IMG/VR virus record: IMGVR_UViG_3300029267_002434
Direction: 5' to 3' (one strand)
Length of the DNA stretch: 64,000 nt
Source of the DNA: a virus
The notes beneath the pieces were generated by a model. It did no database searches. It was not told where the DNA came from and was given only the letters and a program-made list of their open reading frames with translations. The position numbers and the translations under genes are program-made. Below, piece by piece: positions 15,608 through 56,321 of this stretch; position 1 is the first letter of the stretch, and each line of letters starts with the position of its first letter.

Positions 15608-15608
15608 T

Positions 15609-20289: not shown

Positions 20290-20365
20290 GCGGTGGTGGT
20301 GTAACTGGTAGCATACTTGGCCCCCAGCTAAGAGGTGTCGGTTCGAGTCCGATCCTGCCGCTCCA
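20290..20365 (+). tRNA. tRNA-like gene, best read as tRNA-Gly (anticodon CCC) with encoded CCA and non-canonical features
   Basis: Hand fold. The acceptor is GCGGTGG/CTGCCGC (7 bp, 2 G-U), with discriminator T and CCA. The D arm is GTGT/GCAT with an AACTGGTA loop. The anticodon stem is CTTGG/CTAAG with loop CCCCCAG. The T arm is GTCGG TTCGAGT CCGAT. Oddities are C at position 33 and one extra C between the T stem and acceptor stem. Confidence 0.6.
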
Positions 20366-38568: not shown

Positions 38569-38980
38569 ACCCAACATACTTTCCATCTATGTAGCCCCAC
38601 CTATCGTGCTTCCCAGTGACCTGATAACGACCCCGGATATCCAAATGAAATCCGGGGTTGTTCCATTGTGGATAGATCCCCAATCCAATAAAACCAGACA
38701 GCTGTAGTCTGTCCAATATTTGTAACATTTTGATTACCTGAGAATAGAAGGAGAGATCTTCCTCAATATGGAAGTCGGAGGCCTCCCCGGTATAGTGGTA
38801 GGAGGCCTCCGAATGGCCAGAGGTAGCGAACCCGGCATGGATCTTGAAAGGATAGTTGTAAACGCGGCGAATGCTTTCTAAAGTGAACAGCTGAGCGCCG
38901 CTCATTTTGTCCGGATCACCCCAAGCTTCTCCCGGAGAGAAGTGCTTAATTAGTTCCCAGATCACTGTCCGGGACCTCAT
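38531..38980 (-). CDS. peptidase M15-type cell-wall hydrolase (endolysin candidate)
   Basis: HAGFATSGHSEASYHYTGEASDFHI fits the M15A H...S-x-H...G-x-A-x-D zinc motif layout. It follows a membrane protein gene. Confidence 0.6.
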   Translation of the reverse strand: MRSRTVIWELIKHFSPGEAWGDPDKMSGAQLFTLESIRRVYNYPFKIHAGFATSGHSEASYHYTGEASDFHIEEDLSFYSQVIKMLQILDRLQLSGFIGLGIYPQWNNPGFHLDIRGRYQVTGKHDRWGYIDGKYVGFNYALDYTKRDR

Positions 38981-39302
38981 CAGGAAACGCGATGCTGCGG
39001 GAAGGAGGACTGTTCATTTTCATAAACTGACTTACATTTCCCATGAACTTTGATATATTCCTCATAAATGTTTCTATTTTTTCCAGCCTACGGCTTAAAT
39101 CAGTTTGACATTCCCGGCGACAGGCTTCGCAGTGCTTGGTATGATTTGTGACTGACTCTTTGAGGCTCTTAATTTGTTCGTCTTCGTATGCCAACATAGC
39201 AGAAGCTTTGCCCCATATGAAAGCAACACCTGCTACTGTAATAATAAAATTGATCACGAGTGCGATCACGTACCAATTTACAGTGATCACATTTGGCTCC
39301 AT
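38946..39302 (-). CDS. membrane protein with N-terminal TM helix and coiled coil (holin- or spanin-like)
   Basis: The TM helix is WYVIALVINFIITVAGVAFIWG, followed by a helical charged region. Adjacent to the M15 peptidase. Confidence 0.45.
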   Translation of the reverse strand: MEPNVITVNWYVIALVINFIITVAGVAFIWGKASAMLAYEDEQIKSLKESVTNHTKHCEACRRECQTDLSRRLEKIETFMRNISKFMGNVSQFMKMNSPPSRSIAFPDEVPDSDLGTN

Positions 39303-39314
39303 AGGGGCCTCCTC

Positions 39315-39665: not shown

Positions 39666-39676
39666 AATCTCACCTA

Positions 39677-40201: not shown

Positions 40202-40217
40202 AGTACATTCCTCCTTT

Positions 40218-42320
40218 TTACTTGACTTCTACTGAAGCTCCAGCCTGTTTTATTTCCGCAGTAACCCCAACTTGTTTTACAGTTGCAGTCACATTGCTCT
40301 GAGATATAGTAACTGTCATTGTTACTTTCCCAACCGGGACGCGGAATGTTTCCTGAGACCAATCATAAAACTCTACACCGTCTTCTACATATACAGAATA
40401 ATCCGCGAGTCCCCAAGCAGTGTCTGATACTACTATATTATCGATTATTGAAGCCCGAAAGACAAGAGAAAGTATCTCCCGTTCCTCACTAAACTCAACG
40501 TGATCGATCACACTAACAGTTTCTATATTTTTCCAAGCCCTGGCAATATCCTGAAATTGTACCCCATCTTCCACTAAAGCTAACAAACCAGTGATCACAA
40601 CTTCGATAGGATCCTGGAAGTATGCTGTTTCTAGAATCTGCGCGATAGCTGCTTTGGAAGCTTGGGGGGTGTCCGAGAAGTAAACGGTTTCCGACATCAG
40701 CGCGGTAAGCAATGGCAGGTATACTGTATCATTGAAGTAAACAGTATCTCTTACCTCCACACTTGCGACTAGACTGGGCTGAACGGTCGTGCTTATATAA
40801 ACTGTTTCCTCATTCAAAGCTTGTTTTACAATATTATGAGGAGACAAACTATCACTCACATAGACTGTATCTGTTACTGAAACTATAGTAGAAGCAATCC
40901 TGCTCGATTCATCCGAGAAGCAGACAGTGTCTTCCACTGTCTCCAACCACTTGTTCCAGGCATACGTCCAGGACAGCCAGAACACTACCCGATCTCTGAC
41001 CATCCCAACCAGCGCCCCCGATCGATCTTGAAGCGTGGTAAGGTATAGTATCTCTTCTATAGAACTCGTAGCATCTTTACGAGGATAAGGAATCGAATCA
41101 GACACAGCGAGAGCGTCTTCCATTTCTGAACTGGCTCTAACTGCAGGCACTGGGTCTTGCGCAGTCACATAAACCGTATCAGAAATAGCGGCTGGAATCG
41201 TATAAGTCGCTAGTGCGTTCTCATTCAGGTACAGGTAGTCCTCTATTTCTAAATGAACAACTGTCCTGGGCTGAAGCGCCTCCGATAAATATAAAGTCTG
41301 AGCGATTGAGGCCCTAGCTACTCGCGCCGGATCGGGACGTAGATCATTGAAGTAAACTGAATCGGACAAGGAGCCCTGAACAAGCAGTCCTACCAAAGGA
41401 TTTCCATCGCTGAAATAGACCGTTTCGCCAATGGAGGACCTACCTACTGCCCTGGGCGCTAGAACTGTTGAGAAGTACGCTGTTTCCACCCGAGATGGGT
41501 GCAAAGTACTAAAGCCATGTAATGCCTCGGACAAATACAAAGTATCTGTGATAACAACAGCTGCGGAACGCACAGGGTCCGCGCGCATCTCACTAAAGTA
41601 CACTGTTTCGGTAGCAGAGGGGCGTACTGTCGCAATTACTGCAGGAGTCCCATCGTCAAAATAAACAGTTTCAGAAACAGAAGGACGAACCGCAGCAATG
41701 ACACTAGGACTCCCATCGTTGAAATAGACTGTTTCAGAAATCCTACCAGCTACGATCGGGATCTCTTCCCAACGATCAATCCTCCATACCACTTTATCCT
41801 CGTATGAGACTACAGTGACTCCATCCCCTGTAGGCCCATTTGTTATTCCAGTGTGGTATTGAATGGGAGTTCTGGGACTGGACAAAGAGCCCTCATCAAT
41901 CTCCGATTCACCTGCTGTTTTCCATTCCCCAGCTGCAACATCTACACGATCATACATATATTGAATTCTAGTGAAGGTATTCCAATCAAAAGGCTCCCAC
42001 GCCCCAAAATGCCAATCTCCAGCTTCGTCGTCATCATAAAAACAACCCCTCCAACGAAGCTGCCCTCCATTGTTCTCAATCTCTACATAAGCAACCTTAT
42101 CACTATTGGCATCCTTTAGAATCATTGTTTCAAAGCTACTTCCATCGGGCAAGCCGCCTGTAGGAATCAATTGCCACTTGTGGCAATAACTCAAATTGGC
42201 AGCATTCTTCTCTTGATAAGTGTAATCATCTCCCTCGCCATTAGTATAGCCAAACTTACCAACATAATCGCCCTCGGGAGCTGTAACATCGCTATTATAC
42301 AGATCATGATATCGTGCCAT
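40218..42320 (-). CDS. fibre-like protein: jelly-roll/LamG-like N-terminal domain + 23 tandem ~20-residue repeats
   Basis: Repeat core [E/D]-T-V-Y-F-x-D recurs at residues 196, 217, 238 ... 647 (hand count). The start overlaps the stop of the upstream giant gene. Confidence 0.6.
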   Translation of the reverse strand: MARYHDLYNSDVTAPEGDYVGKFGYTNGEGDDYTYQEKNAANLSYCHKWQLIPTGGLPDGSSFETMILKDANSDKVAYVEIENNGGQLRWRGCFYDDDEAGDWHFGAWEPFDWNTFTRIQYMYDRVDVAAGEWKTAGESEIDEGSLSSPRTPIQYHTGITNGPTGDGVTVVSYEDKVVWRIDRWEEIPIVAGRISETVYFNDGSPSVIAAVRPSVSETVYFDDGTPAVIATVRPSATETVYFSEMRADPVRSAAVVITDTLYLSEALHGFSTLHPSRVETAYFSTVLAPRAVGRSSIGETVYFSDGNPLVGLLVQGSLSDSVYFNDLRPDPARVARASIAQTLYLSEALQPRTVVHLEIEDYLYLNENALATYTIPAAISDTVYVTAQDPVPAVRASSEMEDALAVSDSIPYPRKDATSSIEEILYLTTLQDRSGALVGMVRDRVVFWLSWTYAWNKWLETVEDTVCFSDESSRIASTIVSVTDTVYVSDSLSPHNIVKQALNEETVYISTTVQPSLVASVEVRDTVYFNDTVYLPLLTALMSETVYFSDTPQASKAAIAQILETAYFQDPIEVVITGLLALVEDGVQFQDIARAWKNIETVSVIDHVEFSEEREILSLVFRASIIDNIVVSDTAWGLADYSVYVEDGVEFYDWSQETFRVPVGKVTMTVTISQSNVTATVKQVGVTAEIKQAGASVEVK

Positions 42321-45300
42321 TACATACCTACCGTATCGTCAATCCAGTAACTGTCCGCATACCAATCCATCATCAGAAAAGCGTAAGGATTCTCCCAATC
42401 TTCCTCGCCAGCAGGATCATCCCCCGGCCCCGCCGGGTCTTCAAATCCTTCATCAATCCAAACAACCGAAAGGGGATATGTTATGGTAAGTGATTGCTCT
42501 GCGCCCTCGGTTGATCCAAAGGCTTGTCCAGTTGATCCGCTGTATATCGTGCCGATCATTTCGTTCGTGTCCAAGTCAACGTCAATAATAGAATAACCGC
42601 CCGTGTAGTACCCGTCCCCCACATTGTTTTTGTGTATTATACAATAGTCGCCGGGAGCCTCCGTATATCCGCTATCGTCTCCATCCACCATCCACGAACC
42701 TGTCATGTAGGTGGCAGAATACTGACAAGGCCCGGAGTCAAGTTGATAGTAAAAATCGTCACTATGCTCGGCTTGGTCGATTGCGTGGAAGTGCCGATCC
42801 CCGACCAAATACATAAGGTTTGGGTTTGTTATCTCTGCTTGTATGTATTCTCTTGCTCCACTCCCCTTCCAATAACGATTGTACGAAGCATATGTGGCTG
42901 GATCTTCTGCCGTGAACTCGGCCCCCGTTGGTGGAGTGCTTGCGGTTGTGGAATCTCCGGTTGCCGTGACAAGCTCTTTGTCACTATATTCTGTTATGGT
43001 TTCATCTACCAAAAACTCTCCATTTGGCATACCCTCATATGAATAAGTAATATGCATCCCATAGCTGTCTTCATGTATAGCATAGTCCCAACCAGTTGCA
43101 GCAATATCATCTTCTATGCCAAGTTGAGTATCTGAGTCTTCCGAAGTTACATAAGTATAATAATACGTCTCGCCAGAATCCAACTTATTGTTATTGTTTT
43201 CATCATCAAAAACCAATACAGCGTCACCAACATCTACATACCGGCCTCTGACATCTGGACTAGAGAAATCTGCCCCACTATCTATAAGTTTGTTTGTGTC
43301 AGTATCGGTTGTCGTGCCAGTAGTAATATTAGGTATTTCGACATTTGTGACAAGCGTAAGAGTGTTTCCATCATCAATTTCATCAATTCTAGCGACGGCT
43401 CCCGATGTTTCTCCTACCAGATAATACCCCTCATTGAGTGAGGCGGTAGAGGCAACGTCCATTTTGAGTTCTCGAAGGTCATAATAATTTACAGACGCGT
43501 CATATCTGTCACTGTTAACAAAACAGGTCATATCTTTTTCGCCAGCAGTGTCACCCGTTCGTGCTTCGTTGTGTTTAAATACGACGGACGACAACAACAC
43601 CTGCGCCCTAGTCGCTGAGTCCTCCAGGCCCTTGTCAAACCATTCTCGTTGTACGTGTCCGGCTGCATCTGCTGCTTCATGTGAGTTATATACTGTGCCG
43701 CCTGATTCGTGTATCGTATAAGACCAGTTTCCTCCCGATGCAATATCAGTATCTAAGACCAAAATAGAGTCGCTCTCTACTTCTTCCACATGCCCGTACC
43801 AATCTGTTCCACTTTTCGTGACTATAACGCCGTCACCAACATCGACGGTTGTTAGGAAATTTTGTCCAGCGTCTTTGAGATCGCCACTATCCCCATCCGC
43901 ATCTGTCGTACCGCTGTCCTTAGAGTCCGTCAAATAAGCCGTTCCATCAAACCAATCAGTGCCTACATACAACGGGTCAGCTTTGGTACGAACATCAACC
44001 AAGAAAAACTCTACCATAGCGCCGTACTGGAACTTTTGCCACAGTCCTGCTACCTTTACCCGGAAACTATCACCGCTCGATACACTTTCAACTGCATCTC
44101 CGTATTTATCAATCAAGCCATAAGTTGAAGATTGATGAACCAACTCAATTGTATCCGTGCTATCGTTGACGGACTTTACTATCCCATATGCATGAGTGGG
44201 CGGAGTGGATTGGTCTGTATAATGCACAACCATTCCGTTTCTCACATCGCTCAAATCTTTTCCATCGCACTCAATTGTGTTAGCATCACTATCGGCATCC
44301 AGTGTTCCTTCTACATCTTCAAGGGCGTTGCCATTGTAATCTGGAGATACATGAGAATCGCCCATATCAAACCTGGGCATCCAATCATGGAGCACGTCGT
44401 AGTTGCGATAATTTCGCATATACTCAATATCTCCGGTAGCCGGTTCGCCCGGCCCGATTTTGGTCGCATTGTCCCAACCATAATCATGGTCATCCCACAA
44501 ATTGATCCAGGGAGTTTCGGTCAAGCACTCAAGAGTCATGTGCCGTGCCCCCTGGAATCCTGTACTTTGGGAAAACGACCAAAACAGAGAAAAGTCAGTG
44601 TCGCCTGTGTCATTTATAAAATCACCAATATGAATCATAAATGCCGGAATTTCATGTGTAGTTCCACTATCTCCCCCCGACATCATGTATTTCCATATGT
44701 CCGGCCTATCCGCTTGATGCCTATCGCACACAAAAGCAAAATGGACATCTTCTTCTGTGCTGGTCGCCGGGAATGTTTTTAGAGAAAAGAGGTCATTGTC
44801 CATCTCTTGTATAAGCTCATTAGACGTTCCGTCCAATCTGTACCAACTCACCCACGATGAAGCATTCTCTCCCTTTACCCGAATGTCATAATAAACGGTT
44901 TGGCCCTGAAAAGAAGACCAGTCTAGTGTAGCGTCTGGACTGCCATCTAGGGTTTCATCATAGGCATATACTGAATCTCCATCGGAGATATTAACCTGGA
45001 ACATATATTGCCCGCTCTCTGTAGCAGTTGTTACGTCAACCTCATCTGTTGTATAAACTCCACTGGAATTGCTCTTTACATCGGCCTCTACAGTCCCAAA
45101 GCGCACCTGTACATATCCCGGGCCACTAAGCCTACCATTGGTACAAAAGCCATCTTCGCTCATACAGCCAGAGCCTGTAAAATGAGTCATATATTCTTGG
45201 CTGTCATTTGTTGACAAGGCTCTCACTGTAACTTCTGAAACTTTTGCCCCGCCAGAACAGGAGTCATCAGCGGGTCGTTTGTTTGGCCTCAGCGCAAACA

Positions 45301-48300
45301 AAGCGGCATTTATATCGCTCCAAGTTAGGTCATCGGTATGTATATCAGCGTCAATTGTCGCATAGTCTCCAGAATCAACTGACGAACAGTCTGCATTCGA
45401 ACACCTTGATAGCCGTTCTCCCGGATAAAAAGAGAAATGAGCGTCTGTTCCGTTTTCAAGATTTTGTAGCAGACCCCGATAAACCATACCCAAGCGCAAC
45501 TCGTCGTCTGTCGTATCGTGGCCCCAAACTCTCGCCCTGGTTCCTGTTATAGCGGTACGACTCCCAGGCACACCGTCTCTGTAGGCAGTAACAGCAAAGC
45601 CTTCACTGACCGTAGAGTCCCAGTCTCCTTGTGGAGAAGAGTATTCAAGATATAGCCGTGGGTCTTGATCAAACTCTCTATAATACCAATTAAAAGTGTC
45701 TCCTAAATAAATAGGCCAGTTAGGATGAAATTCAGCAAATGTGCCATTATTGCCGAAATACCATGTTGCCGTTATTCGATTGTGAACGGTTTGGTACTCT
45801 TTTGCCTTGTAATTATAACGTAACCCAATTGGAGAACCGATTTGCTCCGGGTCTTCTATGGACATAATTAAAAAATCGTCTATAGCCTCGTAGGAGGAAG
45901 GATCTCCATCAATTTGCATGTACGTCGAATCACTATCGTCTGACAAAATATCGAGTGTCCCTATATCTGTATCATCAACACTTCTGTCTTTCCATACAAT
46001 ATTGTCAATGAGAAAGGCTGAAGCTTCGTCTTGTGGCGTTCCTCCCCATATGCCTATACGAATAAGGTCAACGCCCTGCTCGTCAAGAGTGTCAGAAGTA
46101 GAAACTTCCGTCCCATCAATGGTTACAACTGTTGTTCCGTTGTCTTCATAATCTATTTCAATAGGAATCCAGGTGTTTTCTGAAACCGAAACCCACCCTA
46201 TCTGATCAACAGCAGGGATGTCCTCCAAAACATAAACATAAATTCTATCGTTGTTGCCATCATACCGAAGCATTGCAAGAACTTGATCCCCAATTTCATA
46301 CAAATAAAAAAAGTCTAAGACTTCTGCGCCACCATCCTCAACATAAAAATCAAAACTTACCCCAAAATGCTCCCTGTTTGCCGTAGGCAAAGTATACCCA
46401 GCCCACGCTCTTTCAGTGTGAGCTGTGGTCTTTGAGACTTTGAAACACTGTTCTCCCTCACTAACTTGTGTTGTATAGTCTTTGTCAATAGTACCGCCGT
46501 CTTCAGTTTCGTCCCAATCCAGGCCATAACCGCTTCCCTCAAAACCCTCTGCACCGATTATTGCGCTGTCATCATTTTCCCAACTTGTTGTTGAAACAGA
46601 TGCTGCAAGTTCTTGCTTGACTATCCCCAAAGCCCCTTGCTGCGATGAATCGCTCCATCTCCATGCATCATAATAAACGGTAGTTGTAGAGTTACAAAAG
46701 GTTGGCTCTAATGCCCCATAAACCAGATCATCAGCCGACCTTCCGTTTGTTAAGGCGTCCTCACTATACGCAAACCCAAGAGATGAATAGATGCCGTTGT
46801 CGCAAGAATAAACCTCAAGGTCACACTCATCAGCATCATAGAAGCCTGTGAGAAAATACCACGTATCTATCGTGATCGTTTTTGTTGACGTGTTATTCCA
46901 TCCATCGTGGTATTCGTAAATAGTAAGCTGAAGATCACTGCCGGACTTGGAGACTTCGCCATAAACTGCTTCCGTTCCACCACTTGCCCTTAGTTCAAAA
47001 ATTCTGAAGTCATCTCCATCTGAAAGGCCGTCATCTGTTATGCGAAAATAGCCGTCGATATAGTGGGTCGCTCCAGTTGGATCAGCGTTTGTTTCCGTAT
47101 TGTTGGCTTCGGTATCGCTGCCCTCAGAGTCTATTTGATAATCACAGTCATCGCCTAATCCGGTTGGTCTTTCATCGGCGGGGAATGAAGTGTCTGTACT
47201 CTCTATCGAAGCACAGTTACCATCGGCAGAACAATCCGAATCGCAGCAGTCAATGTCGCCATCTCCGTCATTATCAATGCCATCATTACAAGTGCTTTCC
47301 GGGTCTTCGCAATCGCCCACACCATCACAATCGGAATCTGCGCAGTCAATATCTCCGTCCGCATCGTTATCAACGTCATCGTCGCAAGTCAGTTCCGTGC
47401 CATATTCGCAATCACCCAAGGTGTCGCAATCATCGTCTGCACAGTCGATAAAACCATCACCATCATTGTCCTCTCCATCGCTACATAAATCAGCCGTGTC
47501 TTCGTCTGTTTGGTATTCTTCCTCATCACCCCAAGCAGAGATAAAACCACTGGGATTGCTGGTCATGTTGTAGAACGTGCCAATCCAATCCGCTCCTTTC
47601 TCATCACTTGTGATTATTAGCTCGTCAATATCTCCGTCATAATCGTAAGTAGTATCGTTCCAGCCAGTACCAAGGGTAAAAACCTTAATATAATTATTCC
47701 AATTCTCGCCATCCGAAGTACTGCCAGACTCAACACCATCAACAAATATATCCCAATCCCCACCCCCGCTTTCATCCCTTGTAATAACCAAGAGCTGCCA
47801 TGTTCCATCAAAATCGGAACCATCTCCAAGATAATTATAAGTTGATCTCCTTAACCCAATTCCGTTATTGCTGCCATTTAGCCATCTAGCGATATAGTCG
47901 TTATTGGCAGTATTTCTATCGCCTATTATGGTTTTAAGTGTAGTATTATCGTTTATCCACATCATCACCGTTGCATCTTGATTGGCAGACGATCCCCCTA
48001 TGTAAACCGCATCTGCCAAATCAATACTGTCAAGGCTGTCACTAAAGTCCTGAGCATAACCAACTTGACCACTTACCTGACCAACAGATCCGGTTTCCGT
48101 TGCATCGCTAGATTGATTACCAGTTGCATCCTCATGGGTGTTCCCGCTACCCTCAAGGTGCATGACTAACTCATACTCACTGTCCCACGTATTCGCTACG
48201 TCCTGCTGATCGCTTGATTGATCGGAGTCACCGTAGTAAATCCAAATAGTAGTGTTTGACCCACGATTTAAAGTGGCAACCTCAACCCAAAACTCGCCCG

Positions 48301-48634
48301 AAAAGCCAGCCCCATCGTCATCATCCCCTGGGTCTTCAGTCGCTGATACTCTCTCGTATGCCAACTCTGTGCCGGATGTTCCGTCAGTGCCTTGACAAAA
48401 AGCAATATCATAGTAGTCATCTCTGGTATTAGCGCCATCCATGTCTGTATCGTCTGTTATTTCAATATAGACAGGGTAATCGCTGAAAGTGCCAGAGCCT
48501 TCCACATCGTTACCGTCAATTGTGATCTCTTTGCGGTATGTATATGCCGTCATGTTGTCATGCCACGCATACGCCGAGGAACAAAACCCCAAAACCAAAA
48601 GCAAAACCAGTATGAGTCTAATTTTCATTTTCAT
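42320..48634 (-). CDS. giant secreted multidomain protein (2104 aa): signal peptide, DUF2341-like, LamG-like, Cys/Asp repeats, interrupted PhoD-like metallophosphatase
   Basis: MKMKIRLILVLLLVLGFCSSAYA-W is a Sec-type signal. YRKEITID...TIWIYYGDSD is DUF2341-like. CSDGEDNDGDGFIDCADDDCD-type repeats are present. Phosphatase motifs are HFAFVCDRHQ, IHIGDFIND, LWDDHDYGWDNA, FFLVDVRTKADP and YLVGDRHFHAID. Confidence 0.8.
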   Translation of the reverse strand: MKMKIRLILVLLLVLGFCSSAYAWHDNMTAYTYRKEITIDGNDVEGSGTFSDYPVYIEITDDTDMDGANTRDDYYDIAFCQGTDGTSGTELAYERVSATEDPGDDDDGAGFSGEFWVEVATLNRGSNTTIWIYYGDSDQSSDQQDVANTWDSEYELVMHLEGSGNTHEDATGNQSSDATETGSVGQVSGQVGYAQDFSDSLDSIDLADAVYIGGSSANQDATVMMWINDNTTLKTIIGDRNTANNDYIARWLNGSNNGIGLRRSTYNYLGDGSDFDGTWQLLVITRDESGGGDWDIFVDGVESGSTSDGENWNNYIKVFTLGTGWNDTTYDYDGDIDELIITSDEKGADWIGTFYNMTSNPSGFISAWGDEEEYQTDEDTADLCSDGEDNDGDGFIDCADDDCDTLGDCEYGTELTCDDDVDNDADGDIDCADSDCDGVGDCEDPESTCNDGIDNDGDGDIDCCDSDCSADGNCASIESTDTSFPADERPTGLGDDCDYQIDSEGSDTEANNTETNADPTGATHYIDGYFRITDDGLSDGDDFRIFELRASGGTEAVYGEVSKSGSDLQLTIYEYHDGWNNTSTKTITIDTWYFLTGFYDADECDLEVYSCDNGIYSSLGFAYSEDALTNGRSADDLVYGALEPTFCNSTTTVYYDAWRWSDSSQQGALGIVKQELAASVSTTSWENDDSAIIGAEGFEGSGYGLDWDETEDGGTIDKDYTTQVSEGEQCFKVSKTTAHTERAWAGYTLPTANREHFGVSFDFYVEDGGAEVLDFFYLYEIGDQVLAMLRYDGNNDRIYVYVLEDIPAVDQIGWVSVSENTWIPIEIDYEDNGTTVVTIDGTEVSTSDTLDEQGVDLIRIGIWGGTPQDEASAFLIDNIVWKDRSVDDTDIGTLDILSDDSDSTYMQIDGDPSSYEAIDDFLIMSIEDPEQIGSPIGLRYNYKAKEYQTVHNRITATWYFGNNGTFAEFHPNWPIYLGDTFNWYYREFDQDPRLYLEYSSPQGDWDSTVSEGFAVTAYRDGVPGSRTAITGTRARVWGHDTTDDELRLGMVYRGLLQNLENGTDAHFSFYPGERLSRCSNADCSSVDSGDYATIDADIHTDDLTWSDINAALFALRPNKRPADDSCSGGAKVSEVTVRALSTNDSQEYMTHFTGSGCMSEDGFCTNGRLSGPGYVQVRFGTVEADVKSNSSGVYTTDEVDVTTATESGQYMFQVNISDGDSVYAYDETLDGSPDATLDWSSFQGQTVYYDIRVKGENASSWVSWYRLDGTSNELIQEMDNDLFSLKTFPATSTEEDVHFAFVCDRHQADRPDIWKYMMSGGDSGTTHEIPAFMIHIGDFINDTGDTDFSLFWSFSQSTGFQGARHMTLECLTETPWINLWDDHDYGWDNATKIGPGEPATGDIEYMRNYRNYDVLHDWMPRFDMGDSHVSPDYNGNALEDVEGTLDADSDANTIECDGKDLSDVRNGMVVHYTDQSTPPTHAYGIVKSVNDSTDTIELVHQSSTYGLIDKYGDAVESVSSGDSFRVKVAGLWQKFQYGAMVEFFLVDVRTKADPLYVGTDWFDGTAYLTDSKDSGTTDADGDSGDLKDAGQNFLTTVDVGDGVIVTKSGTDWYGHVEEVESDSILVLDTDIASGGNWSYTIHESGGTVYNSHEAADAAGHVQREWFDKGLEDSATRAQVLLSSVVFKHNEARTGDTAGEKDMTCFVNSDRYDASVNYYDLRELKMDVASTASLNEGYYLVGETSGAVARIDEIDDGNTLTLVTNVEIPNITTGTTTDTDTNKLIDSGADFSSPDVRGRYVDVGDAVLVFDDENNNNKLDSGETYYYTYVTSEDSDTQLGIEDDIAATGWDYAIHEDSYGMHITYSYEGMPNGEFLVDETITEYSDKELVTATGDSTTASTPPTGAEFTAEDPATYASYNRYWKGSGAREYIQAEITNPNLMYLVGDRHFHAIDQAEHSDDFYYQLDSGPCQYSATYMTGSWMVDGDDSGYTEAPGDYCIIHKNNVGDGYYTGGYSIIDVDLDTNEMIGTIYSGSTGQAFGSTEGAEQSLTITYPLSVVWIDEGFEDPAGPGDDPAGEEDWENPYAFLMMDWYADSYWIDDTVGM
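47213..47485 (-). repeat. Cys/Asp-rich tandem repeats (C-x-D-G-x-D-N-D-x-D-G-x-I-D-C-x-D-x-D-C) inside the 2104-aa gene
   Basis: Residues ~384-474: LCSDGEDNDGDGFIDCADDDCD / TCDDDVDNDADGDIDCADSDCD / TCNDGIDNDGDGDIDCCDSDC. Confidence 0.8.
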
Positions 48635-48637
48635 CTC

Positions 48638-51600
48638 CTACAGTCCTAATGCCTCGTCCAACCAATAATCGTCCGCAAAGCTCACAATATCTTCCCAGTC
48701 GTAAGTCGGTCCCGGGGCTCCATCATCTTCCCAATCCTCATAGATCCAAATCAGACTGGGGCGAAAAATGTAAGAAAGAGGAATTGCGTCGGCCTCAAAA
48801 GTAGACTCAGTAGGCCCCCACACCTCCCCATCTGCATCCATTATCTGTACATCCACGGTATTCGCAGTTGCATCGACCTGGATCAATATGAACCCTCCGG
48901 CCTGTCCCGGATCAATCTCGTTACTAAATATTCCATCGTTCACAGGATCTATTCCATAGCCTCTGTATATCTTAAAGAGGCAATTGGCTGTTCCTATGTC
49001 TTTGTCAAGGGTCAGTGTAGAATTACTATCTACATTGGTCACATGAGCGAACCACCGGATGTCCGAGCCCTGCTTCACCATTGCAATATCGTTGACCTCC
49101 ACGGTGGAGGCAAAGTTTTGGTCGCTATCATAAAGTTTATAAGATGCCCCACTCTCTGTAATACCATTGTCCACTAACGTCATAGAGTGCGGATAGAACG
49201 CTAATTCATCCCTTTCTATATGACCGCTATCATCCAAATCTATTCCCCAATCAGTAAACCCAAATGTATAGTTAGGGCCAAGCGGTCCTGGATCTAACTG
49301 GAGATAAAAGTCATCCGTATGGGTAGCGTCGTCGATCGCTCGATAATGCCTGTCTCCGACCAAATAGAAGATATTAGGCACCGGGGAAAGTTTATTCATA
49401 GAGTATTCCCGGCACCCGGAAGCTTTCCAAAACCTATTGTAATCATACGGCGTTTCTCCTGAAGTGGTGGTATTATTCGCCATAAAAGGCTTGCCCGATG
49501 GGGCTACCGTAATGGCCTGTGTTCCACTCGCGGTACTTAGAGCGCAATCCGTGTATTCATAAACCACCTCGTCTACAAACTCCCCATGAATCACGCTATG
49601 CCAACCGGGACAGTCAGGATGGTAAGGATCAATATACATCTCGGTGTAGAATGACAGCGTGTAAATCCCGTCTCCATTGTCGACCACATCCTTGATTCGC
49701 GCCCTCGCTCCAGACGATCCTCCCAATACATAATTCCCCAAGTCAAAATCCGCGTCTCCTCCTGAAATTGATTGGATATCTAACTTGGTCAGCAGAGGCG
49801 TGGAATAAAGGTCACTATCATACGTGGCAGATCCCTCTTTCGCCAGCTCTGCACTATTGCCGTAACAGACCCCATCCCTGTCTGGAATAGCGTCGTGCCA
49901 GCGGCCAGCGTTATGTTTGATGTTCGTGTCCGACAATATAAACTTGGCCAGCGCGGTCGTGTTATTCAGAGTGTTCTCCGTCCATGTCCTTTGGATATGC
50001 CCAGCCTCATGCGCCTCTGCTAAAGTATCATAAGCAGTCCCTCCTGCTTCGTTTATCACAAATGTACTCCCAGCCTCGTCCGCTATATCTCGATTAAGCG
50101 TGAGTGTCTCATCGTCATCTACTGTTTTTATATGCGCGTAATAATCTATCGTATCTGCTTTTGTTACAATTACCACATCGCCTACATTAACAGTCGAAGT
50201 AAAGTTCTGCAATGCTTCATAAAGCTTGAACGCGGAGGGCTGGGTCCCTACCGTTCCTGCGTCTTTATAACCTGATTCATAAGCCGTCCCATCATAATAG
50301 TCACAGCCCGGAGTCGCTACTGGATCGCTCTTCAAACGCGTATCTGTTACAAGAAACTCAGCCACATTTCCAAACTCTCGACTATGCCATATCCCAGCGC
50401 GGGACACCCGAAACTCATCGCCCACTTCCCAATCCAGAGCTTCTCCATGAAAATCTATACACTGTCCATTTACAGTTATAGTATCACCAGACGCAGACTC
50501 TGCGAAAGACACTGCATTCTTGGTAAGATTATGCACCGCCATTCCCTTCGCCACCCAATCATCTGTGGAAGAATCCCCAAATGTGCGCCCATTATCACTA
50601 ATGGTATAAGGGGTCCCAGTGGATGCAGAAGACACCACGCCGTCTGTAAGATCAGCCCAATACGTTCCTTCATAATCCGGCGACAGTTTGTAATCCCCGT
50701 TCGAATCCTGCGGAAAGGGAGTGTACTCTTTGTTCCCTTGCATGCCTATGTACGTTCTTAGATAAGTGGGCCGGTTCTTGAGGAACTTGTATGCTCCAGT
50801 TTTGGAAGCATCGTTGGCGAAATAATCATGGTCAGAATAGTCCTTTATGTAGGGCCACCGGGACCGTGTCTCGGTATAAGTGAACCGCTTGTTTTGAAAC
50901 CCTACAGTAGACTTCCACATATAGCGATTCGCGTACAATACGTCTCCTGGGTCTGGAACTTCGTCCCCCAATAGTAGAAAAAACGAACCATCATTGGCAG
51001 CTAACTGGGATCCTATTTGTGTCCAGGTACCAGGAGAATCAATGCCATGAGAATCCGATCCTACTACGAACGCAAGAGTGTCACTATAAGTAGAAGCAGG
51101 AAAAGTTTTGGTGGCTAGTAAATTATTGGTCATATCAGCCCAGACAGGATTACTGGTTTCTAACGAATCCATACTCCCCTCGAACCGAGCCATTGAGTAG
51201 TAGTTGGCAGCGTTCTCCCCCTTTATCAAAACATCATAGTAAACAACGGTATTATAAAGACCATCGCCTGAATAACTTACAGTATGCGAATCCCCATTAG
51301 TATCGGTTACGCTTTGTCCTTCCAAGATATTGACCTGGAAAGTATAGTCGCTGCTAGAGGAGAGCAGGGAACTTGCCGCTGTTGTCCACGTACTGCCTGT
51401 GTTATCCTCAACTCCGCCCTCTGACAATCCGTACCGGACCTTTATATAAGCTGGACCTGATGCCCTGGCCTTTATGCCTATTCCATCCGTCCAAGCGGTG
51501 GTGCCTATGAAATGAGATATATATTCCTGATTGCTTCCAGCTGATACAGCCTGTCCGTATGTTTCCGAAATCTCACCGCCGCCATCGGAAAAGTCATCTT

Positions 51601-54600
51601 CAAACCGCGTCTCTGGGCAGGTCTTGAACCCATAAAGCCAACTGTCTGCTTCACTCCAAGTCAGCGCCGTTCTCAGATTTTCAGTATCCCAATCGGATGC
51701 TACAGGAACTCGACGTACTAATTCATACCGGTTGTTCTTAGGATTCTCTGGAAATGCGGAACTGAAAGTCAGGGTATCTGAATCATTACTGGCCACTTCC
51801 TTGATCTCATCCGCATCTACTTCGCCACTATCATCCGTATCGCATCGAACGAGCCACCCAGCATATTCATTGTCGCTCCATTCTCCTCTGTCTTGCTCAT
51901 TGCCTACTTGAATATCATTGTCTTCGATGGCCGTGGTGGTACTGTCCCCATCAGCCCACCTCTTTGCAAACTGATCATAGTCGAAAAGGTTCAGAGTTTC
52001 ATTCTGTCGAATATCAAAGTAGGCCCCCTCATATATATACTGCCCTTCAATTCCCATTAAGGGCATCAGCTTAGCAACTGTAATAGTATTTGCAAGCGTA
52101 TCAAAATCCATTACATAACCGCCGATACCAGTATCAGTTCGTACTACATCCAGTTTGTCCAACCTGCTCTCAAACAGACCATTCGGATTATATCTAAGGT
52201 TATTAATGGCAGGATAACGATCCACTTCCCGATACATCCATTCAAAATCAGTCCCGACCCATACCGGGAGCTGGGGATGGATCCATTGTTGGTTTAGGGT
52301 GTCTTGCTCATGATAGTACCCCACTACAAGCCTGTGGTCGATAACGCCTACCTCCTTGGCCTTGAAGAACATACGCAGCGCCTTAATATCTCCCAAGTGG
52401 GCGGGAGCTGATGGATCCACTACCAAGGTATCCTCCATGCTAAAGAAGCCCTGAGTCTCCTGCGCATTGAAGAAATAAGTAGAGTCATCCCCATCCGCAA
52501 GCAGATTCTCTGGACCTAATGGAGGGAAGCTTGAAGTGGTTAGGAATATATCATCTTGCCACCATTGAAAACCACCCTCTGGATCCTCTAAGATTCCAAA
52601 CCGAACTCCCTCCACATAAGAGGAGCTAGATGTGATGGTCCCAGTATAATCAAAGGACATGTCCATATCATCATCTATTGGCTCTACCAATATGTTAAAA
52701 CCCACATCGCTCCCAGCTTGCCATTCTACCCTAATCAAATAAGTAGTAGTTGCATGATCGATCGTACCCGACTCAGGGTAGGTGTACACTTTCGTATCGC
52801 CCTGATAAAAATGAATTTGGTTTTCTCCGTCCGCGCTCCCCGGAGCCCCAATTCGTGCGGTCCAACAGTCTCCTGCGTCTCCTACCAATTGAGCTATCTT
52901 GATATCGTCTGTGCCATTAGTAGCCACGAATATGGCCTTGAAGCTGGTATAAACATGCGTAGGCAAGGGGTCGGTATTGAAATGGGCAGTATCTTGTAGG
53001 TATACATAAGCATCATCCTCCACCGTCCCTCCGCCGGTGTTATAACGAGCGCTGTACTGACCATTAATTATTACATCAGTCCAGGTGACATTCACTGAAG
53101 CGTTAGCCGATGGCTTAGTCCAAGCTGGGTTTGACATCCCATTATCATCATGATAGGCCCGGGCATCGAAATCTTCGTAAACTAAAACGTCTGTCTCACT
53201 ACCATCCAATGTCGGCCACCACCCAAGCGCGAAGTAAGGCTCCACCGCTACATTTTGCTTGACCATACCAGCAGGACCCGGCTGTTCTGAATTACTGTAA
53301 TCCCATTCATCATGATACAATATAGTAGGAACATTATTACACGCATCGCAATCGGTTAAGTCTCGAACACCATATCTAAGAAAATCTGGGGACGCTCCTC
53401 CCGACAAACCTGTGGCAGAATAATTTATGATTCTATTATAAATTCCATTATTGCAAGTAAATGCTTGGATACTGCAAGCAGTCTCTGTATAAGATATCTG
53501 AGCATAAATCCAAGTGCCATCTGGAATAATAGCGCTTTCCGTTGGATTGTTATTTGGGGTATGGGACGTATGGTAATCTTCGAAATAAAGCTCCAGGTTC
53601 CCCCCAGACATTTCCATAGTTGCTCTTACTGCTAGGTCTGTAGTAGAACTATTAAGCAGCAAAAAAGGTCTGAAGTGCTCCCCTTCCGATAAATCAGTTT
53701 GAGATACCCTCCAGTACCCCCTCCAATACTCTTGCGTGCTACCAGCGTCAATATCAGCGTGTGCCGTTTTTCCTACCGATGATGCTTTAAGATCGCATGT
53801 ATCTCCTAATCCAGTAGGACGCTCGGTTCCAATGTTCCATAATTCGGAATAGTTTATATCAGAAATAGTACTAGACGAACAAAACGCATCATCGCAAAAA
53901 GAATCACAACAGTCAATATCCCCATCCCCATCATTGTCGAACGTATCGCAGCAATTATCATTGAATGAGGCTTCATCTTCGCAAACATAACCATCAGACC
54001 CGTGTTCCACCCCTTCGCAATTAGGATCAGCGCAGTCTTTCCCATTTTCTCCGTCATTGTCAATCCCATCGCTACAAAGAGCCGGTGTGTTCTCGATTGT
54101 AGGAGTGTTGTTCTCTTCAACGGCCATATCCCAAAAGCTACCGGAGGGAGTTGGATCGTTCTGATTGTTGTAACAAGTATACACCCATTCATCCGATTTA
54201 AACTCATTCAATATAATTATTTCATCAATATCTCCTTCCCAATCATAGTTGGTACTGTTAAGCCCATTGCCTATATTCCTTATTCCTAAAAAAGTATTCA
54301 TCGATAACGATCCAGAACTTTTTTCATCGTTTAAAAAACAGTACCACGTATCGGAAGCCGTTCTAGTAATTGCAGCAAAGGCCCAGTCTGCTCCTATAGA
54401 CTCTGTTGAAAAATTGTAAGTGTTTTGATTACCGCTAGTTTGAAGCCTGAACTCATCATCGTTAGACCAAGTTGCTATATAACTATCCTCATCCGCTCCT
54501 TGATACCCCAGTAGACTGTCAGTACTAGAAAAAGCTCCACTTGGACACTCAAACCAAATCATCAAAGTACCGCCTTGGTCAGCGCCGCTGCCCCCTACAT

Positions 54601-55189
54601 AAATTGTGGATGCTGGTGCGATATCAAAAGTCGCAACATCTGTTGGGAAACTTTGACACCCATCGATTTGTCCGGTGGGATCCAGGGAAATAGTTCCTGT
54701 CTCACTAAAACTAATATTGTTGGTAGAATCCTCTGCGACCCCCGATTCTTCCATATGCATAACCAATTGGTATTCCCCGTCCCAAGTCGCGGTTGTGTCC
54801 TGCCGATCGGTAGTCTGATTGGAGTTTCCATAATAAAGGTATAGAGTGGTATCACTAGAGGAGGAAAGATTGTCAACCTCAATCCAAAGAGTGGTATCTA
54901 TCTGCGAGTTCCCAGTATCCCGATAGAAATAAGAACGCTCGTAAGCCAGCTCCGTTGAATCATCTCCAGCTATGATCGCAATATCGTATCCGCTTGTGCT
55001 GGTGAGATGACTATATAGATCAGAGTCATTCTGTATTTGTAGAACTACCACATAATTCCCTGTAACCTCTACCAACGAAGAACTTACTGTAAGTTCTTTT
55101 CGGTAGTCCCAATTGGTATCCCACCAGGCCTGGGCGAGAGAAGGGAACATTATTATAATCAACGATACCAACAAGAGCACTCTTTTCAT
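48638..55189 (-). CDS. giant secreted multidomain protein (~2183 aa), collinear paralogue of 42320..48634
   Basis: The start at ATG 55189 (MKRVLLLVSLIIIMFPSLAQA-WW) abuts the upstream stop at 55191. It has the same domain order as its paralogue: YRKELTV...TLYLYYGNSN, LamG-like, ALCSDGIDNDGENGKDCADPNC...DNDGDGDIDCCDSFC, FVVGSDSHG, LLLGDEVPD, DYSDHDYFANDA, FLVTDTRLKSDP and YLVGDRHYRAID. Confidence 0.8.
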   Translation of the reverse strand: MKRVLLLVSLIIIMFPSLAQAWWDTNWDYRKELTVSSSLVEVTGNYVVVLQIQNDSDLYSHLTSTSGYDIAIIAGDDSTELAYERSYFYRDTGNSQIDTTLWIEVDNLSSSSDTTLYLYYGNSNQTTDRQDTTATWDGEYQLVMHMEESGVAEDSTNNISFSETGTISLDPTGQIDGCQSFPTDVATFDIAPASTIYVGGSGADQGGTLMIWFECPSGAFSSTDSLLGYQGADEDSYIATWSNDDEFRLQTSGNQNTYNFSTESIGADWAFAAITRTASDTWYCFLNDEKSSGSLSMNTFLGIRNIGNGLNSTNYDWEGDIDEIIILNEFKSDEWVYTCYNNQNDPTPSGSFWDMAVEENNTPTIENTPALCSDGIDNDGENGKDCADPNCEGVEHGSDGYVCEDEASFNDNCCDTFDNDGDGDIDCCDSFCDDAFCSSSTISDINYSELWNIGTERPTGLGDTCDLKASSVGKTAHADIDAGSTQEYWRGYWRVSQTDLSEGEHFRPFLLLNSSTTDLAVRATMEMSGGNLELYFEDYHTSHTPNNNPTESAIIPDGTWIYAQISYTETACSIQAFTCNNGIYNRIINYSATGLSGGASPDFLRYGVRDLTDCDACNNVPTILYHDEWDYSNSEQPGPAGMVKQNVAVEPYFALGWWPTLDGSETDVLVYEDFDARAYHDDNGMSNPAWTKPSANASVNVTWTDVIINGQYSARYNTGGGTVEDDAYVYLQDTAHFNTDPLPTHVYTSFKAIFVATNGTDDIKIAQLVGDAGDCWTARIGAPGSADGENQIHFYQGDTKVYTYPESGTIDHATTTYLIRVEWQAGSDVGFNILVEPIDDDMDMSFDYTGTITSSSSYVEGVRFGILEDPEGGFQWWQDDIFLTTSSFPPLGPENLLADGDDSTYFFNAQETQGFFSMEDTLVVDPSAPAHLGDIKALRMFFKAKEVGVIDHRLVVGYYHEQDTLNQQWIHPQLPVWVGTDFEWMYREVDRYPAINNLRYNPNGLFESRLDKLDVVRTDTGIGGYVMDFDTLANTITVAKLMPLMGIEGQYIYEGAYFDIRQNETLNLFDYDQFAKRWADGDSTTTAIEDNDIQVGNEQDRGEWSDNEYAGWLVRCDTDDSGEVDADEIKEVASNDSDTLTFSSAFPENPKNNRYELVRRVPVASDWDTENLRTALTWSEADSWLYGFKTCPETRFEDDFSDGGGEISETYGQAVSAGSNQEYISHFIGTTAWTDGIGIKARASGPAYIKVRYGLSEGGVEDNTGSTWTTAASSLLSSSSDYTFQVNILEGQSVTDTNGDSHTVSYSGDGLYNTVVYYDVLIKGENAANYYSMARFEGSMDSLETSNPVWADMTNNLLATKTFPASTYSDTLAFVVGSDSHGIDSPGTWTQIGSQLAANDGSFFLLLGDEVPDPGDVLYANRYMWKSTVGFQNKRFTYTETRSRWPYIKDYSDHDYFANDASKTGAYKFLKNRPTYLRTYIGMQGNKEYTPFPQDSNGDYKLSPDYEGTYWADLTDGVVSSASTGTPYTISDNGRTFGDSSTDDWVAKGMAVHNLTKNAVSFAESASGDTITVNGQCIDFHGEALDWEVGDEFRVSRAGIWHSREFGNVAEFLVTDTRLKSDPVATPGCDYYDGTAYESGYKDAGTVGTQPSAFKLYEALQNFTSTVNVGDVVIVTKADTIDYYAHIKTVDDDETLTLNRDIADEAGSTFVINEAGGTAYDTLAEAHEAGHIQRTWTENTLNNTTALAKFILSDTNIKHNAGRWHDAIPDRDGVCYGNSAELAKEGSATYDSDLYSTPLLTKLDIQSISGGDADFDLGNYVLGGSSGARARIKDVVDNGDGIYTLSFYTEMYIDPYHPDCPGWHSVIHGEFVDEVVYEYTDCALSTASGTQAITVAPSGKPFMANNTTTSGETPYDYNRFWKASGCREYSMNKLSPVPNIFYLVGDRHYRAIDDATHTDDFYLQLDPGPLGPNYTFGFTDWGIDLDDSGHIERDELAFYPHSMTLVDNGITESGASYKLYDSDQNFASTVEVNDIAMVKQGSDIRWFAHVTNVDSNSTLTLDKDIGTANCLFKIYRGYGIDPVNDGIFSNEIDPGQAGGFILIQVDATANTVDVQIMDADGEVWGPTESTFEADAIPLSYIFRPSLIWIYEDWEDDGAPGPTYDWEDIVSFADDYWLDEALGL

Positions 55190-55190
55190 T

Positions 55191-55700
55191 CTACAATACT
55201 CCTTCGAAGACGATCTCAAAATTTCTCCAGCGGTGCCATTCGTCCGATAAAGTATCTGGACAGGTCCCAGCCCACCATCGGTGCCGAGCACCTACATAAT
55301 ACTCAGTCTTGGCGACGAGTTCAGAACAAACGGGCATGCCCGTAAAGCTTAGATATTTCGCAAGAGGAGGTACGACATGGAGGGGAAGTCTCCACCATGG
55401 ATAAATGTCCCCTACGTGGTCTAGGAGCATTAAAAAAGCCTTTTCCCATCTGCGTTCCTCCAGCTCAGTGTATCGAGCGATCACCACCTGGCGACCAGTA
55501 TAGCGCTCAAATAGATTATTGACCTCAACTTTCCAGAGGCTTTCTATCATATCTCCCTCGGGATTTATGATAATCCCAGCATGGGTATAAAGACTCTGGT
55601 TGTCCCTGCTATTCCACTTTTGGACAGCACTAATCCCGCAACCGAGAACGGCTGAGGGATTAGCGGTCGCAAAGAAATCGCAATGTTTAAGATCAATCAT
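55191..55700 (-). CDS. permuted papain-like (NlpC/P60 superfamily, YiiX/C92-like) hydrolase
   Basis: YTHAGIIINPEGDMIESLWKV (His region) precedes MPVCSELVAK (Cys region). This is the permuted order typical of the YaeF/YiiX family. Confidence 0.45.
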   Translation of the reverse strand: MIDLKHCDFFATANPSAVLGCGISAVQKWNSRDNQSLYTHAGIIINPEGDMIESLWKVEVNNLFERYTGRQVVIARYTELEERRWEKAFLMLLDHVGDIYPWWRLPLHVVPPLAKYLSFTGMPVCSELVAKTEYYVGARHRWWAGTCPDTLSDEWHRWRNFEIVFEGVL

Positions 55701-55900
55701 TTCTTGGTCTCTTCAAGAGCAGCCTTGATCTTCTCAGCCTTATGGCCTACTCCCAAGACGCCCAAAGCTCCAGCGGCTGCAAACAGCGCGTTAGCTATGT
55801 CCGACTGCCCTAAAATCTGAAGAATCACGCCCCCTAAAGCAACTAAGAATGAGGTCTTCACTTTCCATCCGCCAATCGGAATTTGTTTAGGAATCGACAT
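55697..55900 (-). CDS. small two-TM membrane protein (holin-like)
   Basis: TSFLVALGGVILQILG and ALFAAAGALGVLGVG are hydrophobic segments, followed by a charged C-terminus. Its stop overlaps the start of the hydrolase gene. Confidence 0.45.
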   Translation of the reverse strand: MSIPKQIPIGGWKVKTSFLVALGGVILQILGQSDIANALFAAAGALGVLGVGHKAEKIKAALEETKK

Positions 55901-55913
55901 TTAGATCACCTCC

Positions 55914-56321
55914 TTATTGCGGTTCGGTTGGTATCGTAATAGTAAAGGGCGGCGGCGCCAGGAAGTCAAGTACCGTACTCACCTCATTGCTCTTCTCGCT
56001 CTCATTACCGCTTTCATCGTAAGCCGTAGCGACAAAGTAATAAGTAGTCTCATCCTCATCCGGAGCCGTAATAGAGTTTTCAGAAGTATAAGTAGTCTGC
56101 CCTTCCACATAGGGAACGTCTACAACAAGATCGGGGCTATCTGCACCGAGAGCCTGTCCGTCAGCAGTCAGGCTGGCGTAAATCCGGAATCCCGCTAGAT
56201 CCGCTGGAGGGCTGGGATAATCCCACTGGAGGGCCACCGGTTCGCTTCCGGCGAAAGCGGTAGGCGCGAATATGCAAAACAGGATGGCAAAAATACTTAA
56301 AATACCTACGAATTTTTTCAT
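55914..56321 (-). CDS. secreted FN3/Ig-like small protein
   Basis: ATG 56321 follows GAAGGAG. The signal peptide is MKKFVGILSIFAILFCIFAPTAFA. The LQWDYPSPPADLAGFRIY...YYFVATAYDESGNESEKS pattern is FN3-like. Confidence 0.55.
   Translation of the reverse strand: MKKFVGILSIFAILFCIFAPTAFAGSEPVALQWDYPSPPADLAGFRIYASLTADGQALGADSPDLVVDVPYVEGQTTYTSENSITAPDEDETTYYFVATAYDESGNESEKSNEVSTVLDFLAPPPFTITIPTEPQ

Follow-up and report, generated by a model that had tools for sequence, protein, structure and literature searches.

Tandem giant proteins with Sec-type signal peptides in a phage late operon: candidate exported lectin-phosphodiesterases

The IMG/VR virus record IMGVR_UViG_3300029267_002434 was analyzed as a stretch of 64,000 nucleotides (the window), in which two tandem giant genes, named here gpA and gpB, encode proteins that begin like secreted proteins and are placed among fibre-like genes of a phage late operon. 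The question raised by this locus is whether the two giants are exported from the infected cell or assembled into the virion, and on what they would act. Altogether, the comparisons described here point, tentatively, to gpA and gpB being Sec-exported lectin-phosphodiesterases that would act on a phosphodiester-linked envelope polymer. This reading is ranked first, at a confidence that falls somewhat short of even, and has to be weighed against the fibre-like relationships of the same proteins.

Both genes were found on the minus strand, at the coordinates and with the lengths that a first-pass annotation of this DNA had given, as seen in the list of open reading frames (ORFs) and their translations:

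42320..48634, minus strand: gpA, 2104 amino acids (aa)
48638..55189, minus strand: gpB, 2183 aa, paralogue of gpA, inside the ORF 48638-55291 with its ATG at 55189

The N- and C-terminal peptides quoted in that annotation were also correct. For gpA, a second ATG at 48628, which gives the 2102-aa product of public gene callers, is the better-placed start and has GGAG 6 nt upstream; the gpB ATG at 55189 is preceded by AAGGAG at 9 nt. These Shine-Dalgarno sites speak for the starts from which the hydrophobic N-termini are translated. The proposal that the proteins are collinear paralogues from end to end was confirmed by BLASTP, which returned two collinear high-scoring segment pairs with 32-35% identity (E 2e-107 and 6e-88; about 34% overall), and by a three-way alignment with the relative P0002 that was collinear from the AxA-W junction to the C-terminal ...YW.D..VG[ML]. 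Each giant contains 29-31 cysteines.

The first line of evidence for export is provided by the N-termini, which were assigned as follows:

48566..48634, minus strand: gpA Sec-type signal peptide (MKMKIR / LILVLLLVLGF / CSSAYA, then W)
55127..55189, minus strand: gpB Sec-type signal peptide (MKR / VLLLVSLIIIMF / PSLAQA, then W)

By inspection and hydropathy, both have the features of a Sec signal cleaved by signal peptidase I, namely a positively charged n-region, then 10-15 hydrophobic residues as the h-region, and small residues at -3 and -1, with a lipobox being absent. The same type of signal is seen in P0002 when it is read from an upstream ATG (MKHRLR-ILLYFALFLMLF-PSVALA, then W). The description of the N-termini as textbook Sec signal peptides (AYA-W and AQA-W) was upheld, with the n, h and c regions all present and conserved. 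The c-region (F.PS.A.A-W) and the Trp at +1 are invariant in gpA, gpB and P0002, which share 33-38% identity overall. In a hydropathy scan the N-terminus was the sole strongly hydrophobic 19-mer of each giant, and gpA and gpB were found to lack any anchor to membrane or wall, any lipobox and any further hydrophobic segment. A lipoprotein signal was considered for gpA and rejected on account of the Phe at -1 before the Cys. No comparable N-terminus is present in the 1118-, 695-, 437-, 700- and 174-aa tail-like proteins of this phage; the only other late protein with a signal-type N-terminus is the 135-aa FN3-like protein encoded directly upstream of the giants. Signal peptides are also present in the related proteins P0122, P0123 and P0140, all on phage-like contigs. 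The signal peptides look genuine and conserved, and export and cleavage are predicted. A functional Sec signal on a tail protein assembled in the cytoplasm would be strongly counter-selected, and its retention here is the main reason that export was ranked first.

The second line of evidence is a predicted enzyme in the C-terminal half of both proteins:

42485..44752, minus strand: gpA PhoD-type metallophosphatase, residues ~1295-2050, split by small beta-barrel inserts
48815..51547, minus strand: gpB PhoD_N-like sandwich and PhoD-type metallophosphatase, with one C-terminal insert more than gpA

The motifs were located in gpA at residues 1304-1306 (DRH), 1337-1338 (GD), 1382-1384 (DHD), 1659-1663 (GHVQR) and 1945-1948 (GDRH), and in gpB at 1377 (GSDSHG), 1406 (LLGDEV), 1451 (YSDHDY), ~1730 (GHIQR) and 1945 (GDRH). 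Searches of the PDB by sequence with the three-sequence half alignments alone gave nothing useful. A profile of 14 family members matched the structure of Bacillus subtilis PhoD (2YEQ) at E 1.5e-13 in three collinear segments and 9UYA at E 8e-10, with purple acid phosphatases weakly matched. Twelve of the 14 members matched the Pfam PhoD model (best E 7e-17), and strong precomputed matches were available for P0128 and P0146. All 14 members have DHD, GH.QR and D.H unchanged, and conservation of the motif-I Asp and of the GD is nearly complete (at least 90%); the motif-I His is invariant just in the alignment of gpA, gpB and P0002. All of these motifs are present in both giants. The conservation of the metal-binding motifs argues for an active phosphoesterase.

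The likeness to PhoD (PF09423, 2YEQ) extends to the collinear order of GD, (W/S)DHD/E, a YG..A.F..D.R strand, G..Q..WL and GD.H, to a beta-sandwich before the catalytic domain in several family members, and to secretion, which for the giants is predicted. Differences are that the catalytic domain of the giants is split by at least 2-3 beta-barrel inserts and lies inside a 2,100-aa protein, and that their signal is of the Sec and not the Tat type, whereas the cellular member P0128 does carry a Tat signal. The beta-barrel-like inserts also stand alone in many small proteins, a few of which match phage families.

Between the signal peptide and the phosphatase, and again at the C-terminus, the following modules were recognized:

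47510..48565, minus strand: gpA DUF2341 and LamG (Laminin_G_3), residues 24-375, by Pfam and by BLASTP to P0040 (E 2e-24)
54095..55126, minus strand: gpB DUF2341 and LamG-like region, residues 22-365
47231..47485, minus strand: gpA, three Cys/Asp repeats (C..G.DNDGDG..DC.D.DC), residues 384-468, by regular-expression scan
53894..54076, minus strand: gpB, two Cys/Asp repeats, residues 372-432, by the same scan
46643..47125, minus strand: gpA jelly-roll, residues 504-664, by a hidden Markov model (HMM) of the N-domain of the 437- and 700-aa proteins (E 1.5e-14)
53297..53734, minus strand: gpB copy of that jelly-roll, residues 486-631, by the same HMM (E 1e-5)
45965..46567, minus strand: gpA second jelly-roll, residues ~690-890, opening E-G-F-E-G-S-G-Y, a motif that recurs family-wide
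44765..45217, minus strand: gpA beta-sandwich before the phosphatase, residues ~1140-1290, like the N-domain of PhoD (PhoD_N) or purple acid phosphatase
42323..42469, minus strand: gpA acidic/aromatic C-terminal tail (WIDEGFED...DWYADSYWIDDTVGM), repeating the first-strand motif of the internal jelly-roll

The LamG assignment of the first-pass annotation was borne out in gpA, where Laminin_G_3 (PF13385) scored 38.2 bits (E 2e-9; cut-off 27.6); in gpB this domain went undetected by Pfam, and the region aligns with that of gpA at 35% identity. For DUF2341 (PF10102, cut-off 23.4), gpB was above the cut-off with 27.9 bits and gpA was borderline with 23.1. The N-terminal region of gpA also aligned with each of the three DUF2341-plus-LamG units of P0040 (31% identity over 344 aa). 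The Cys/Asp stretch was the source of most phmmer matches. The proteins matched are cellular and of the secreted type, some of them being named MopE-related or having PF11617, with 45-67% identity over this stretch. As the MopE Pfam model PF11617 itself gave zero matches at E up to 0.1, the metal-binding-type repeats that had been noted earlier are retained as disulfide/Ca-type Cys/Asp repeats, three in gpA and two in gpB, and are not assigned to MopE.

Of the two or three jelly-roll domains in each giant, the second is recognized by E-x-F-E..GY..W, with the next domain marked by SDDSDSTY; the secondary structure predicted by AlphaFold2 was all-beta, in a low-confidence model. The sandwich before the phosphatase was matched by PF16655/PF16656 in 4-5 of the 14 family members and went undetected in gpA itself. 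The C-terminal motif, hydrophobic-x-D/E-E-x-F-E/D ... W, also ends P0002, P0122, P0125, P0135, P0136, P0141 and P0153, members both with and without a signal peptide, and may serve as a docking peptide or as a strand that is swapped or donated. An architecture typical of cell-surface proteins, as first proposed, applies only to residues 1 to ~480; the ~1,600 residues that follow belong to a very rare and mostly phage-borne family, whose members occur with or without a signal.

An HMM search with the C-terminal half against 1.84 billion representative proteins gave 119 matches, 17 of them below E 1e-30. Pattern scans of IMG/VR, GTDB genomes and JGI metagenome contigs revealed no relatives, and a homologue search started from the cellular member P0128 returned only P0128. 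Nine contexts of relatives were read, seven phage-like and two cellular:

P0134, no signal: 110-kb phage contig; adjoins Gp80-like, GT2, sulfotransferase, head-completion and tail-terminator genes
P0129, no signal: after tape measure and genes for 248, 726, 140 and 628 aa (a module homologous to the 257/1118/695 module of the window phage)
P0123, Sec signal: after the same baseplate-like module, in tandem with P0153
P0153, no signal: in tandem with P0123
P0122, Sec signal and full gpA architecture: lambda-like phage, between head and tail-tube genes, with genes for SLT, patatin and a protein of two transmembrane segments just upstream
P0133, no signal: between head and tail genes, with a PLA2-like gene upstream
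P0146, Sec signal: phage-like contig, adjoining Gp77-like and tail-tube genes; head genes are not on the contig
P0140, Sec signal: phage-like contig, adjoining a 2,507-aa LPD38 protein
P0128, Tat signal: cellular; adjoins Wzy_C and three phosphodiesterase genes
P0145, Sec signal: cellular; adjoins DnaX and GtrA

In the phage relatives, the family core sits directly behind baseplate-like genes or between head and tail genes. In the P0123/P0153 contig (L010, 5971-18389), the tandem PhoD-type giants P0123 (1645 aa, with signal) and P0153 (2176 aa, without) are separated by a 314-aa signal-bearing protein.

An assembly chimera, with host genes joined to phage DNA, had been named as the finding that would overturn phage ownership, and the resemblance of the N-terminal 480 residues to cellular secreted proteins speaks for it. 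This possibility is effectively refuted. A protein identical to gpA (P0001) is present on 12 contigs, and its gene varies in position relative to the contig ends. Nine of the 12 belong to the 50-200 kb class and are 105,891-106,017 bp long. The identical arrangement is present on at least nine contigs of this class, which come from JGI, ENA and Logan, and assembly of the ~106-kb contig, with differing end points, was seen in nine samples or more. Contigs with permuted ends in many samples indicate that gpA and gpB are carried by a complete, circularly permuted tailed phage genome of ~106 kb. In addition, there is no break in GC content or GC skew across the region, both genes overlap or abut phage neighbour genes, and homologues were found in four other phage contexts. 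The phage is only distantly T5-like, its polymerase being only ~24% identical to those of T5-like Vibrio and Salmonella phages, and represents an uncharacterised lineage. Genes for replication (helicases, a DnaB-like helicase, clamp, family-A polymerase, UvsX-like recombinase and SbcCD-like nucleases) are found on the plus strand between 1 and 38.5 kb, and the minus strand is the late operon.

The setting of the giants in a phage late region was likewise confirmed. With the order extended by the flanks of the same contig, the late operon runs in transcription order from the tape measure through genes for proteins of 257, 1118, 130, 139, 695 and 437 aa to a Gp80-like fibre protein, eight glycosyl-/sulfotransferase-type genes and three small genes, and then through gpB, gpA and proteins of 700, 174 and 116 aa to a 118-aa transmembrane protein and a 149-aa M15-like peptidase. 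A scan for promoters and terminators gave no signal above shuffled expectation, which leaves an independent moron cassette for the giants without evidence. The neighbouring genes that bear on the argument are:

40218..42320, minus strand: 700-aa fibre-like protein with a jelly-roll N-domain, translationally coupled to gpA
55191..56321, minus strand: three small genes upstream of gpB with no gap; weak phrog_31 match, families below significance
38531..39302, minus strand: probable lysis genes, for the 118-aa transmembrane protein and the 149-aa M15-like peptidase (HYTGEASD...FHLD); Pfam matches weak
56537-62095, minus strand, and 37873-38568, plus strand: glycosylation/sulfation island

In the 700-aa protein, after the N-domain, a unit of 20-21 aa centred on E-T-V-Y-F is repeated in tandem at least 19 times, and these repeats are the probable shaft of a fibre. 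The products of the three small genes are the 135-aa protein, in which a signal is combined with an FN3-like domain, one of 67 aa whose hydrophobic segment is weak, and one of 169 aa that has Cys/His motifs (GCGIS...YTHAGII) and is possibly a papain or NlpC-like hydrolase. The 118-aa protein has an N-terminal transmembrane segment, coiled-coil-like sequence and a weak DUF948 match. No ORF with a lipobox that might encode an o-spanin lipoprotein was found in 38300-40300, a result too weak for calling the host monoderm.

The fibre-like neighbours weigh against export and in favor of a second explanation, by which the giants would be virion-borne tail or side fibres with a PhoD-type depolymerase, assembled on the baseplate and cleaving a phosphodiester-linked receptor polymer during adsorption, with the N-terminus unused for export or with a fraction of the protein escaping it. 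The giants lie between baseplate-like and lysis genes, among fibre-like genes to which they are translationally coupled, and they contain the jelly-roll N-domain shared by the 700- and 437-aa proteins. In L010 and L014, the gene right after the homologue of the 695-aa protein encodes a family member, and the order of a giant followed by a 700-like gene is kept in the window, L004 and L009. The close relatives P0129, P0133 and P0153, which lack a signal, look like virion fibres: in P0133, the PhoD core stands between the fibre N-domain and a C-terminal stretch of 500 aa with 56% identity to the repeat shaft of a 677-aa fibre-like protein, which is encoded as a separate gene after P0122, and the C-terminus of P0129 matches the C-terminal domain of 401- and 437-aa proteins. 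Virion-borne enzymes that degrade teichoic acid are also known, according to references listed in PMC6116005.

We nevertheless consider the fibre explanation unlikely, if a serious contender. A cleavable-type Sec signal would remove the protein from the cytoplasm, where tails are assembled, and yet it is conserved among proteins of 33-38% identity, whereas the other tail proteins of the phage have no such N-terminus; it is followed, moreover, by Cys-rich modules otherwise seen in secreted proteins. No PHROG tail family was matched by the giants, and tblastn of gpA and of the 700-, 695- and 1118-aa proteins against 50,697 phage records gave zero matches; the Gp80-like protein gave just six weak partial matches, with no clue to the host. 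The sole similarity to fibres is the domain shared with neighbouring fibre-like proteins that are themselves uncharacterised. There is a conflict between the signal peptide and the fibre-like ancestry: position, shared domains and fusions argue for a fibre-associated depolymerase, and the signal and the Cys-rich modules argue for export.

Other observations count against an exported lectin-phosphodiesterase. The signal peptides were called by inspection and hydropathy, export is a prediction, and the specific substrate is a proposal. The PhoD-like phosphatase of the first-pass annotation holds for the family profile, while gpA alone stays under the threshold of PF09423 (gathering score 27 bits; 23.6 for the whole protein and 26.8 for the C-terminal half) and gpB alone gave no match to the Pfam model. 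In motif I (D-x-H) the Cys ligand of PhoD is replaced by Asp, and the Tyr of GDYIY in PhoD is absent; the metal centre may therefore differ. AlphaFold2 models of the C- and N-terminal halves, built from three-sequence alignments, were unusable (mean predicted local distance difference test scores of 29.8 and 32.4, respectively).

If the exported lectin-phosphodiesterase reading is correct, the giants would leave the cytoplasm through the host Sec machinery before lysis, their lectin-like modules would bind an envelope glycopolymer, and the PhoD domain would cleave phosphodiester bonds in that polymer. Candidate substrates are polymers of the teichoic-acid type, phosphoglycans, capsules or phospholipid head groups. 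An envelope target is suggested by the lectin and jelly-roll modules in combination with the recurring neighbours predicted to act on peptidoglycan, phospholipid and surface polysaccharide, among them the genes next to P0122, P0133 and P0128 and the probable lysis genes downstream of the giants in the window. Such activity may aid egress, may strip receptors or barriers from the infected cell, debris and neighbouring cells, or both. In this manner, the giants would do the job of phosphodiesterases that are virion-borne elsewhere and would reach the envelope by secretion, and the signal-less relatives fused to fibre shafts would perform the same chemistry from the virion.

Precedents exist for parts of this proposal. 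The endolysin Lys44 of Oenococcus phage fOg44 is a late phage enzyme with a typical signal peptide that is Sec-exported before lysis (PMC6116005), as predicted for the giants. Lys44 and the signal-arrest-release endolysins differ from them in being small peptidoglycan hydrolases of 200-450 aa, whereas the giants, at ~2,100 aa and with lectin modules, are predicted phosphoesterases; this phage has a separate gene for an M15-like endolysin candidate. Among the references given in PMC6116005 are those for the appendage protein gp12 of phi29, which degrades teichoic acid, and for the baseplate of Lactobacillus phage Ld17, which carries a glycerophosphodiesterase (GDPD). Both resemble what is proposed for the giants, being late or tail-module proteins that combine receptor binding with cleavage of phosphodiester bonds in a wall polymer; they differ in fold (GDPD or beta-helix, against the PhoD/calcineurin-like fold predicted here) and in being proven virion parts without a signal peptide, whereas location and substrate of the giants are predictions. 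The giant DUF2341/LamG/MopE-repeat exoproteins of uncultivated bacteria and archaea share the plan of residues 1 to ~480, and the other ~1,600 residues of the giants are unrelated to them.

The same signal peptides and lectin-like modules could serve a different end, with the giants as exported adhesins that mask or remodel the envelope and exclude superinfecting phages, catalysis being secondary or lost. Small signal-bearing exclusion or moron genes adjoin fibre and receptor-binding genes in other phages, as with lom of lambda and llp of T5. In Patescibacteria, DUF2341 has been reported from giant exoproteins with a presumed role in adhesion (PMC11809585). We regard this explanation as improbable, since the invariant or nearly invariant metallophosphatase motifs point to a selected enzymatic function, the giants have no detected anchor, lipobox or second hydrophobic segment to hold them at the surface, a late structural-to-lysis operon is late for exclusion, and known exclusion proteins are small.

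The phosphatase itself raises the possibility of auxiliary metabolic genes, by which a secreted PhoD-type enzyme would supply phage DNA synthesis with scavenged phosphate. In cells, PhoD is secreted and belongs to the Pho regulon. PhoD-like phosphatases have also been listed as putative viral auxiliary metabolic genes (PMC8269230). This is very improbable here: the genes belong to a late tail-to-lysis operon and not to an early or metabolic region, ~1,300 additional lectin and jelly-roll residues would be unneeded for scavenging, relatives are fused to fibre shafts, and the gene is duplicated in tandem.

A further view, to which we give a slim chance, would have the exported giants attach to virions once lysis has set these free; the conserved C-terminal strand motif and the fibre N-domain are possible docking sites. 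A portion of the apparatus for host recognition and depolymerization would then be produced outside the cytoplasm, as an extracellular completion of a tailed phage. The signal-less, shaft-fused homologues would then represent the conventional version that is assembled in the cytoplasm.

The glycosylation/sulfation island, finally, suggested that the giants might be substrates of its enzymes, a view compatible with the other readings and, in our estimate, of low probability. Eight transferase-type genes lie just upstream of the giants, including a GT2, a second glycosyltransferase that is also GT2-type, a GT-D-fold protein, one or two MptE/Maf-like proteins and a Sulfotransfer_2, and a Sulfotransfer_3 gene is found on the other strand. 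In the related 110-kb phage (L008), genes for GT2, Sulfotransfer_2 and radical-SAM proteins are likewise kept next to the family member, and the giants are rich in Ser and Thr. On the other hand, the transferases have no signal peptide, so that modification of a Sec substrate would have to precede export; the family occurs without such an island in L009, L010, L011 and L014; and virion proteins or host polysaccharides are equally plausible targets. The island could act on virion proteins, host glycans or the giants. Among the three explanations offered by the first-pass annotation, fibres and surface proteins keep real support, and glycosylation substrates are left without direct support.

Several observations on the rest of the genome were made alongside these analyses. 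The tape-measure protein (2,428-2,873 aa, PF10145; L005 1-1647 and L007 1-1647, past the right end of the window) is of a size that implies an unusually long tail; that of the related contig L014 has 2,456 aa. Halophily was considered as a cause of acidity and rejected, as structural and exported proteins alone are acidic and the replication proteins are neutral or basic. Other features of the plus strand are:

21102-22331 and 22247-23713, plus strand: family-A DNA polymerase in two overlapping ORFs in different frames, of which the first matches positions 493-831 of phrog_17 and the second the part that follows (833-1236); a split gene, a programmed frameshift and a sequencing error are all conceivable
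10191-11288 and 15582-17012, plus strand: two paralogous Cys-rich proteins, both matching phrog_13321 (a family of unassigned function); the first has a CX3CX2C motif (NCLVDCHHCY) that recalls radical-SAM enzymes
20290-20365, plus strand: a lone tRNA-Gly (anticodon CCC) between the clamp gene and the next replication gene

If the giants are indeed exported, a lytic tailed phage would devote ~12% of its genome to two giant secreted enzymes, and the set of Sec-exported phage proteins would widen from small endolysins and morons to large lectin-enzyme machines. The signal-bearing, signal-less and shaft-fused members of the family would provide a natural experiment on how an envelope-degrading activity moves between settings, namely those of enzymes secreted by cells, of free phage enzymes and of depolymerases carried on the virion. 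The PhoD-type core would be a new enzymatic class among phage depolymerases, likely to target phosphodiester-linked polymers and thus relevant to hosts with teichoic-acid-like or phosphoglycan surfaces.

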